A stretch of 64,000 bases of DNA, taken from assembly GCF_000026545.1 (NCBI RefSeq), contig NC_011601.1. One strand, 5' to 3'. The stretch is from Escherichia coli O127:H6 str. E2348/69 (lineage in GTDB: Bacteria; Pseudomonadota; Gammaproteobacteria; Enterobacterales; Enterobacteriaceae). The translations under genes were made by a program, and so were the position numbers. The notes below the pieces were generated by a model. That model was given only the letters and a program-made list of their open reading frames with translations. It did no database searches and was not told the origin of the DNA. Position 1 is the first letter of the stretch. Every line of letters begins with the position of its first letter. Positions 10,752 to 14,215 of this stretch are shown piece after piece.

Positions 10752-10867
10752 GACTCCTCCAGTGAGAAAACAGAGCAAAAAGATAAGTATAGATGCTGGA
10801 GGCTGGGCGATTTTAAATGAGAGGAATCTGGTGTGCCTCCCTTTCGGGGGAAAGGGAGGCAGAGAAG

Positions 10868-11590
10868 TTAAGAGACGTGCTGCAAAAATTCCTGCAAGCG
10901 CTGGCTCGGCGGGTTCTTGATCAACACCTGCGGATCGCCATCTTCTGCAATCCGGCCTTTGTCGATAAAGATCAGGCGCGAAGCTACTTTCTCGGCAAAA
11001 CCGATTTCGTGGGTCACGATCACCATCGTCATCCCTTCTTCAGCCAGATCCTGCATAACCTTCAGCACTTCATGGCGCAGTTCCGGGTCAAGAGCGGAAG
11101 TCGGTTCATCAAACAGCATCATTTTCGGCTTCACCGCCAGCGCGCGGGCAATCGCCACACGCTGCTGTTGACCACCAGAAAGTTCGGAAGGGTAGTGATG
11201 TGCACGCTCTGCCAGACCGACTTTCGCCAGCAGCTCACGCGCCAGTTTTTCCGCCTCTTCTTTATTCGCGCCACGCACGCGTAGCGGGCCAAACATGACG
11301 TTTTCCAGCGCCGTCAGATGCGGGAAGAGGTAAAACTGCTGGAACACCATACCCGCTTCCTGGCGAATCAGGCGCTCATCAACTTTCGGATCGTTAACCT
11401 TCAGGCCATCGACAATCAGATCGCCGGAGGTGATTTCTTCCAGTTTGTTGATGCAGCGCAGCAGGGTCGATTTACCGGAACCGGACGGCCCGATAATCAC
11501 CACGACTTCGCCCTGAGCAATGTTCAAATCGATATTGTGCAGCACCTGGGTTGGACCAAAATGCTTGGAGACGTTTTTAAATTCAATCAC
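10868..11590 (-). CDS. glnQ: glutamine ABC transporter ATP-binding protein
   Basis: 240 aa; Walker [13 protein letters not shown] signature LSGGQQQR, Walker [13 protein letters not shown]. Confidence 0.95.
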
Positions 11591-12246
11591 AGGATTTTCA
11601 TCCTTCTTTCCAGACGACGCAGAATAAAGCTCAGCACCAGGGTAATAATCAGATAGAACACCGCCACGGCGCTCCAGATCTCAAGGGCGCGGAAGTTACC
11701 GGCAATAATTTCTTGCCCCTGACGGGTCAGTTCCGCCACGCCGATAACAATAAACAGCGAAGTGTCTTTAATGCTGATGATCCACTGGTTACCCAGCGGC
11801 GGCAGCATACGACGCAGTGCCAGCGGTAAAATGACGTAGCGAATGGTTTCCCAACGTGAAAGACCGAGCGCCAGTCCTGCTTCACGAAAACCTTTGTGAA
11901 TAGACAGCACCGCACCACGCGTGATTTCCGCAATGTACGCGCCGGAGTTGATCATGATGGTGACCACCGCCGCAGTAAACGGGTCGATGCGTAAATCGTT
12001 AAACGCCATCGGCAGGGCGAAATAGATAAACATCACCTGGACGACGATAGGTGTGCCGCGGATCACTTCAATAAAGACCAGCGCGACGTGGTTGGCTATC
12101 CAACCACCGAAGGTGCGTGCAAAACCTGCCAACAATCCGATCACCAGACCGCCAGCCAGACCGAGGACCGAAATCCACAGGGTCATTTTGGCACCTTCAA
12201 TCAGAAGCGGAATGGCAGGCCAGATGGCACTCCAGTCAAACTGCAT
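11587..12246 (-). CDS. glnP: glutamine ABC transporter permease
   Basis: 219 aa polytopic membrane protein; overlaps glnQ start by 4 nt. Confidence 0.95.
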
Positions 12247-12387
12247 ATGTTGTTCCTGTTACCGTGGTGTAAATAATCAAATTCAGGGTAATTAATGGCC
12301 CCGGAGCGGGTTTGCGCCCTTCACCCTAATCCTCTCCCCGGCGGCGGGGAGAGGGAACTGCCAGTGCGCTTTACAGGCGCAGCGTTA

Positions 12388-13149
<762 letters not shown>

Positions 13150-13188
13150 CTATCCACGGGACGATCCCCTGCGTGACATTCACATATA

Positions 13189-13206
13189 TGAAAAAATCGT
13201 GCCAGT
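13189..13206 (-). promoter_or_regulatory. candidate sigma-54 promoter of glnH (glnHp2)
   Basis: Minus strand reads TGGCAC-N5-TTTCA, close to the sigma-54 -24/-12 consensus TGGCAC-N5-TTGCA, about 55 bp upstream of glnH. Confidence 0.5.
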
Positions 13207-13264
13207 TTTGCAACTCATTGATTTTTCGAGATGCGGCAAAAACGTGATGCACGATTTATAGGGC

Positions 13265-13325
13265 AATAGCCTGAAGATGCACCATTCTGGGGCGCCAAAC
13301 TGGTGCGCTAAAATTGTGCACTCAA
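13265..13325 (-). promoter_or_regulatory. candidate NtrC enhancer sites upstream of glnH
   Basis: TGCACC...GGCGCCA and TGGTGCGCTAAAATTGTGCAC palindromic elements resembling the NtrC consensus TGCACC-N5-GGTGCA. Confidence 0.4.
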
Positions 13326-13537
13326 CACAGTGATTATTTAGCGTAAAACCTGATGAAAAAACAATCTTTATGTAACGATTGTGTGATGATGTGGATACAA
13401 AAAATTTACTTAACCAGCTGGTGATAGCAGATGGATGCACTAAATAAGTGCGTTGAGGCGGGCTACAAAACAAAACGGCCTCCTGTCAGGAAGCCGCTTT
13501 TATCGTGTACTAAAGTTCTGCACCATCAGCGATGGAT

Positions 13538-14215
<678 letters not shown>

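Follow-up and report, generated by a model that had tools for sequence, protein, structure and literature searches.

The glnHPQ operon of Escherichia coli begins with the gene for a periplasmic binding protein, followed by those for a permease and an ATPase, and a GC-rich inverted repeat has been described in the spacer between the first two. What this repeat is, and whether it sets the expression of glnH apart from that of glnPQ, are the questions raised by the locus. A preliminary description in E. coli O127:H6 strain E2348/69 proposed an intra-operon attenuator or mRNA-stabilising hairpin, by which the binding-protein gene would be expressed above the other two. The analysis covers a 64,000-nt stretch of this genome (NC_011601.1; the window), in which the operon lies on the minus strand. 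Gene names are those given by RefSeq to the orthologous loci of K-12 and six further strains. The features of the operon and its spacer are:

12388 to 13134, minus strand: glnH, the periplasmic glutamine-binding protein gene, first of glnHPQ (open reading frame and annotation of orthologous RefSeq loci).
11587 to 12246, minus strand: glnP, the permease gene (open reading frame and orthologous RefSeq loci).
10868 to 11590, minus strand: glnQ, the ATPase gene (open reading frame and orthologous RefSeq loci).
12247 to 12387, minus strand: the glnH-glnP intercistronic spacer, 141 nt (sequence and open reading frames).
12345 to 12354, minus strand: 5′ arm of the hairpin in the mRNA, CCUCUCCCCG (inverted-repeat search and folding).
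12341 to 12344, minus strand: loop of the hairpin, CCGC in the mRNA (alignment).
12331 to 12340, minus strand: 3′ arm of the hairpin in the mRNA, CGGGGAGAGG (inverted-repeat search and folding).
12365 to 12381, minus strand: a small 5-bp hairpin (UGCGC..GCGCA) directly past the glnH stop codon (folding and alignment).

The inverted repeat is present as described. On the plus strand, 12331-12354 reads CCTCTCCCCGGCGGCGGGGAGAGG, with two fully complementary, GC-rich arms of 10 nt (12331-12340 and 12345-12354) around a 4-nt loop; a search for this pattern gave one match in the 64-kb window and none in 100 dinucleotide-preserving shuffles. As RNA of the coding (minus) strand, a 34-nt segment folds into a perfect 10-bp stem at −21.2 kcal/mol (z = −3.85; equalled by 0 of 200 shuffles), beginning 33 nt past the glnH stop codon. 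The entire 141-nt spacer folds at −49.9 kcal/mol (z = −2.38). This spacer has a 100% match at 812247-812387 of LT827011.1, and is slightly longer than the 138 nt found in K-12 and most other E. coli.

Little else was recognized in the region. An Rfam scan of 11000-13600 (E ≤ 10) gave no family match inside the spacer, and no minus-strand match to a sigma-70 promoter internal to the operon, from which glnP might be transcribed, was found in the region. An open reading frame running across the repeat on the plus strand (12295-12798) is antisense to glnH and was taken as spurious for that reason. The small hairpin at 12365-12381 is present in phylogroup B2 strains; three G-to-A differences destroy the K-12 version, and because of this disruption it is probably without function. 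Its plus-strand form has a T-rich run behind it and was picked out as a terminator-like site for antisense transcription.

The main hairpin is a copy of a known interspersed repeat, BoxC, and not a structure specific to this locus. BoxC is the element later named PIT and TMECO (PMC4666352). The E. coli family has 22 members in the supplementary FASTA file of Petrillo et al. (2008; PMC2267715), and the K-12 glnH-glnP spacer is identical to one of them, eco:8_BoxC (TGCGCCCCTCACCCTAATCCTCTCCCCATAGGGGAGAGGGAACTGCCAGTG). When this member was set aside, an nhmmer profile of the 21 others still matched the E2348/69 spacer (E = 1.2e-7, 27.7 bits), and this was its only significant match in the 64 kb. 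Two features can be added from the comparison:

12317 to 12362, plus strand: copy of the BoxC/PIT-type repeat, profile envelope 12313-12366 (nhmmer profile).
12317 to 12326, minus strand: third G-rich tract of the BoxC unit, GGGUGAAGGG in the mRNA, the would-be third strand of a triplex (sequence and alignment).

The catalogue (C-rich) form of the repeat is thus on the plus strand, and the mRNA carries its complement. Dispersal is also as expected for an interspersed repeat: a 76-nt core of the K-12 spacer is found at 77,941 places in 5425 E. coli genomes, with a median of 15 per genome, while the full spacer as query has a median of one place per genome. The BoxC/PIT/TMECO layout is a C-arm, a loop, a G-arm, TTA (or CCG) and a second G-tract, and the consensus element folds as an intrastrand DNA triplex in vitro (PMC4666352). 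The glnH-glnP copy shares the sequence family, the multi-copy dispersal, the wholly extragenic site, the G+C-rich palindromic core and the arm, loop and tract layout. It differs from other members in that its stem is perfect, where a mid-stem mismatch is common, and from the consensus in being degenerate, its G-arm ending in GGA rather than GGG. The strict TMECO consensus (CCCTCNCCC-N3-6-GGGNGAGGG-N3-GGGNGAGGG; Holder et al., 2015), applied as a regular expression, has no match in either the E2348/69 or the K-12 spacer, owing to this GGA ending and, in B2 strains, also to the third tract (GGGTGAAGGG). It is matched, intact, by the orthologous copy of L005, a neighbouring Escherichia lineage. 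The K-12 copy is missing from the 23-member Table 1 of PMC4666352.

A REP element might be suspected here by analogy with the malEFG and hisJQMP operons. The E. coli spacer contains no GCCCGG..CCGGGC inverted pair, nor does it align with the REP-like hairpins found at this position in E. albertii, Citrobacter and Salmonella; a REP/BIME identity is not supported.

Does RNA end at this hairpin? The preliminary description had named 3′-end mapping as one of two checks, and would have been refuted in part by a lack of ends at the hairpin; against this, published Term-seq data for K-12 (Adams et al., 2021, PMC7815308, supplementary file 1) contain a curated, dominant 3′ end, 847200(-), in all three growth conditions. 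Its context, ...CCCTCTCCCCTATGGGGAGAGGATTA|GGGTGAGGGG, puts it 4 nt past the stem. The corresponding position in the window is:

12327, minus strand: position homologous to the K-12 3′ end 847200(-), ..GGGGAGAGGAUUA|GGG.. (alignment with K-12).

An RNA 3′ end would be expected there in E2348/69 by homology, the measurement having been made in K-12, whose loop differs. The Term-seq scores of the K-12 end are 30331.8 and 130459, compared with 89018 and 681605 for the neighbouring dps terminator; the source paper left it unclassified (“orphan”), and Term-seq does not separate termination from processing. It is not the only BoxC copy with such an end: at least three others have curated 3′ ends 3-11 nt behind the hairpin, at 3781065(+), 4231270(-) and 632098(+), where chance would produce approximately 0.2 by a rough estimate based on 882-1175 ends per condition. 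Including glnH-glnP, a text search gives 4 of about 22 copies. That a boundary-forming hairpin lies downstream of glnH is well supported, by this end and by the comparison of species given below. To this extent the preliminary description holds up, although of its two options the attenuator is the weaker, as explained next.

Partial transcription termination would mean that polymerase stops at or after the BoxC hairpin in some rounds, so that fewer transcripts reach glnP and glnQ. A 3′ end close behind a strong hairpin is what this leads one to expect, and no curated K-12 end is listed after glnQ, that is, between 838167(-) and 847200(-) (PMC7815308). In addition, many other genera have at this place a hairpin followed by a U-run, like a true intrinsic terminator, suggesting attenuation as the ancestral function of the spacer. 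One argument against it in E. coli is the hairpin tail, AUUAGGGUG, which contains only two U; the G+C-rich stem-loop of a canonical intrinsic terminator is present, but the missing U-run rules that candidate out, and a terminator scan of the minus strand did not place the hairpin among its terminator-like sites. The end lies 4 nt behind the stem, compared with the usual 7-9 nt. According to the summary of reporter work in PMC4666352, PIT elements act neither as terminators nor as promoters and do not affect RNA polymerase. The operon was retained in the set of Dar and Sorek (2018; PMC5927463) after pairs separated by terminator motifs or strong Rho termination had been removed, and supplementary file 2 of PMC7815308 contains no Rho-termination region for glnH or glnP. 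Attenuation by the E. coli hairpin is therefore considered unlikely. The missing U-run, the reported inactivity of PIT elements as terminators and the 4-nt distance favour instead the reading towards which we lean, namely that the hairpin is a barrier to 3′-to-5′ exonucleases which keeps a stable glnH-only message.

Of 80 loci from GTDB species representatives, 79 yielded the glnH-glnP spacer, and all 79 spacers contain a strong hairpin. Among the 76 spacers no longer than 170 nt, the best hairpin (up to 40 nt) has a median of −18.7 kcal/mol, compared with −10.2 in dinucleotide shuffles, and −14 kcal/mol is reached by 97% of spacers and 15% of shuffles; the species being related, these are not independent samples. 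Upstream of a conserved 3′ block the spacers cannot be aligned across species, and their hairpins are of at least three kinds unrelated to one another. A GGGGCG..CGCCCC stem with a U-run, probably the ancestral form, is seen in Kosakonia, Buttiauxella, Cedecea, Leclercia, Serratia and others. REP-like GCCCGG..CCGGGC hairpins occupy the slot in Citrobacter, the Enterobacter cloacae complex, Salmonella, E. albertii, E. whittamii and one lineage labelled E. coli; and long composite hairpins are found in Klebsiella and Raoultella. BoxC is found only in E. coli proper and the clade of the neighbouring lineage mentioned above. The terminator-like hairpins of other enterobacteria resemble the E. coli one in position (approximately 20-40 nt past the glnH stop, upstream of a conserved CCACGGUAACAGGAA) and in stability, but possess the U-run that the BoxC hairpin lacks. 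Retention of a hairpin through complete turnover of its sequence argues that it is the hairpin itself that matters in this spacer.

Within the genus, REP-like hairpins replace BoxC in E. albertii, E. whittamii and the E. coli-labelled SCPM-O-B-8794 (L002:1407-1500, L003 and L004), the last of which has a GlnP 100% identical to that of the window. The edges of the spacer are conserved in these lineages, implying that a middle cassette has been exchanged within Escherichia. Unusually long spacers occur in Intestinirhabdus alba (466 nt; L031:1035-1500) and Serratia sp. H1w (232 nt; L079), with extra structured inserts.

Variation within E. coli was followed in an alignment of eight strains taken down the identity ranking, together with the copy from the neighbouring clade and a rearranged locus from strain 23CRST013, which has lost most of the C-arm. 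Both stem arms are invariant in every aligned copy that has both. The loop is TAT in K-12, TCT in most strains, GCC in those of phylogroup B2 type, and GCCGCC in E2348/69. This last duplication (12341-12346) is restricted, in comparison with other B2 strains, to the E2348/69 lineage, and converts a 9-bp stem with a triloop (−18.3 kcal/mol) into the 10-bp stem with a tetraloop (−21.2 kcal/mol); spacers at least 99% identical to that of E2348/69 were found in 17 of 5420 genomes. The third G-tract also varies, from GGGTGAGGGG to GGGTGAAGGG in B2 strains, by a G-to-A change, with a 1-nt deletion in an O145 strain. With the stems invariant while the loop and third tract drift, the hairpin is retained in E. 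coli as its triplex-forming potential decays.

These comparisons bear on a second possibility, that BoxC is here a neutral, selfish repeat in a tolerant spacer, with no selected role, the 3′ end being a by-product of a stable hairpin and having no effect on fitness or stoichiometry. BoxC copies are scattered over dozens of loci with no pattern of function or position, and two studies devoted to the element detected no function (PMC4666352); with copies at so many unpatterned sites, the presence of one at glnH-glnP could reflect insertion preference rather than selection. The degeneracy of this copy with respect to the strict consensus could be understood in the same way, as could the lack of any differential decay flagged for glnHPQ (PMC5927463; see below). 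Harder to reconcile with neutrality are the strong hairpin in every related species examined, whatever its sequence, and the pattern of change in E. coli, where stems are constant, loop and third tract are not, and the E2348/69 variant is more stable still. Nearly all of the 5426 E. coli genomes have also kept the copy. A purely neutral repeat thus seems improbable, about as much so as attenuation.

The experimentally validated regulatory site of this spacer was, like the BoxC identity, absent from the preliminary description. It is the target of the sRNA GlnZ, which represses glnP and pairs immediately before the ribosome-binding site of that gene. The target could be placed in the window by directly locating the complement of the published seed; folding of GlnZ/spacer duplexes was discarded, since it gave only meaningless long duplexes involving the G+C hairpin. 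The features are:

12258 to 12267, minus strand: CCACGGUAAC, complementary to the GlnZ seed (GUUGCCGUGG), the published glnP-repressing target (K-12 GlnZ sequence and literature).
12254 to 12257, minus strand: the glnP Shine-Dalgarno sequence, AGGA (sequence and conservation).

The published C-18G target mutation in glnP corresponds to position 12264 of the window. Both elements are contained in the last 30 nt of the spacer (CACCACGGTAACAGGAAC), a block which is conserved in most related species and invariant among the aligned Escherichia, Citrobacter and Salmonella spacers. GlnZ acts in the spacer that holds the hairpin and produces discoordinate expression of glnH and glnPQ, but the two are separate elements: the GlnZ site is approximately 60 nt downstream, and the hairpin is outside the published pairing site. 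In Salmonella, a pulse of GlnZ reduces glnP and glnQ by more than 4-fold; glnH is absent from the list of genes so affected, suggesting that a boundary to decay exists in the glnH-glnP spacer.

An exonuclease barrier would supply such a boundary. In the mechanism proposed, the BoxC core of the glnHPQ mRNA would fold into a very stable G+C hairpin of 9-10 bp. Decay would start downstream of it, by endonuclease cleavage in an A+U-rich stretch, or alternatively by GlnZ/Hfq-dependent silencing of glnP at the site 60 nt away; Rho termination in untranslated glnP might be a further starting point. Degradation from 3′ to 5′ would then halt at the hairpin, leaving a stable glnH message with 3′ ends piled up 4 nt behind it, and the binding protein could be produced independently of the permease and ATPase and in larger amounts than these. 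Elsewhere among enterobacteria, the unrelated terminator-like (with U-run) and REP-like hairpins might do an equivalent job in the spacer, and in E. coli a BoxC copy would have taken over the slot. The hairpin and its membership of BoxC are shown, as are the 3′ end in K-12, the turnover of hairpins between species and the GlnZ site; the barrier mechanism, and with it any effect on GlnH:GlnPQ stoichiometry, is what we infer.

There is precedent for such a mechanism. Decay limited by a protective hairpin is established for malE-malF and has been found in other ABC-transporter operons, the binding-protein gene always being the one stabilized (Dar and Sorek, 2018, PMC5927463). The REP/BIME hairpins of malE-malF are like the one described here in being stable, in following a binding-protein gene and in having RNA 3′ ends at their base, and in both cases the binding protein is expected to outnumber the membrane components; moreover, REP-like hairpins fill this very slot in some of the relatives listed above. 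The sequence families are unrelated, and the glnHPQ operon is not on the list of Dar and Sorek: glnQ-glnP-glnH is among the 390 operons analysed (their S2), but absent from the table of differentially decaying pairs (S3; PMC5927463). This absence counts against the barrier reading.

It is plausible, though somewhat less probable than the barrier at this one locus, that BoxC elements are in general RNA-level hairpins that define and protect 3′ ends, and that the E. coli copy was co-opted to replace an ancestral terminator-like or REP-like insulator, letting glnH mRNA survive when GlnZ or another trigger causes the destruction of glnPQ.

Neither the BoxC element nor the principle of a hairpin as mRNA boundary is new, and a barrier here would extend the known REP/malEFG principle without adding a mechanism. 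Mildly new are the connection of a BoxC copy with a measured RNA 3′ end, and the swapping of three hairpin families in one operon slot. Beyond annotation, the assignment of the hairpin to a catalogued repeat family has little importance in itself. Should the barrier role prove true, it would be the first RNA-level function for BoxC, and would explain how GlnZ can shut down glnPQ without loss of glnH.

A DNA-level role, in which C-arm, G-arm and third G-tract form an intrastrand triplex that disturbs replication or recombination and makes the locus unstable, is very improbable: the consensus does form a triplex in vitro, loci carrying the element are more variable among E. coli strains (PMC4666352) and the 23CRST013 rearrangement has its breakpoint inside the C-arm of this copy, but the copy fails the strict consensus, mismatched base triads number 1 of 10 in K-12 and 2 of 10 in E2348/69 as read from the sequence, stable triplexes are unsupported by in vivo footprinting (PMC4666352), and the locus is intact in 5401 of 5426 genomes.

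In strain 23CRST013 (NZ_AP045773.1, L088:200-320, corresponding to approximately 12345-12360), unrelated DNA replaces the glnH side of the spacer and adjoins a frameshifted DUF4942 gene; the same record has a second partial match elsewhere. The breakpoint fits either the reported instability of BoxC/TMECO loci or an insertion into the repeat.

Some other structures and RNA ends near the operon may be mentioned. Weak, sub-threshold Rfam matches to ctRNA_p42d, STnc70 and isrD at 13465-13555 (minus strand) all fall on the dps terminator hairpin, which corresponds to the strong K-12 Term-seq end at 848340. The operon itself closes with a further hairpin:

10835 to 10860, minus strand: hairpin at the operon end past glnQ, GCCUCCCUUU-CCCCCG-AAAGGGAGGC, without a U-run (sequence).

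This one has no curated K-12 Term-seq 3′ end, unlike the spacer hairpin with its strong one. At the other end of the operon, the K-12 3′ end 848057 (approximately 13187 of the window, minus strand) falls 53 nt before the start codon of glnH, inside or beside a sigma-54-like motif, TGGCAC-N5-TTTCA, and could be a premature end in the glnH leader.
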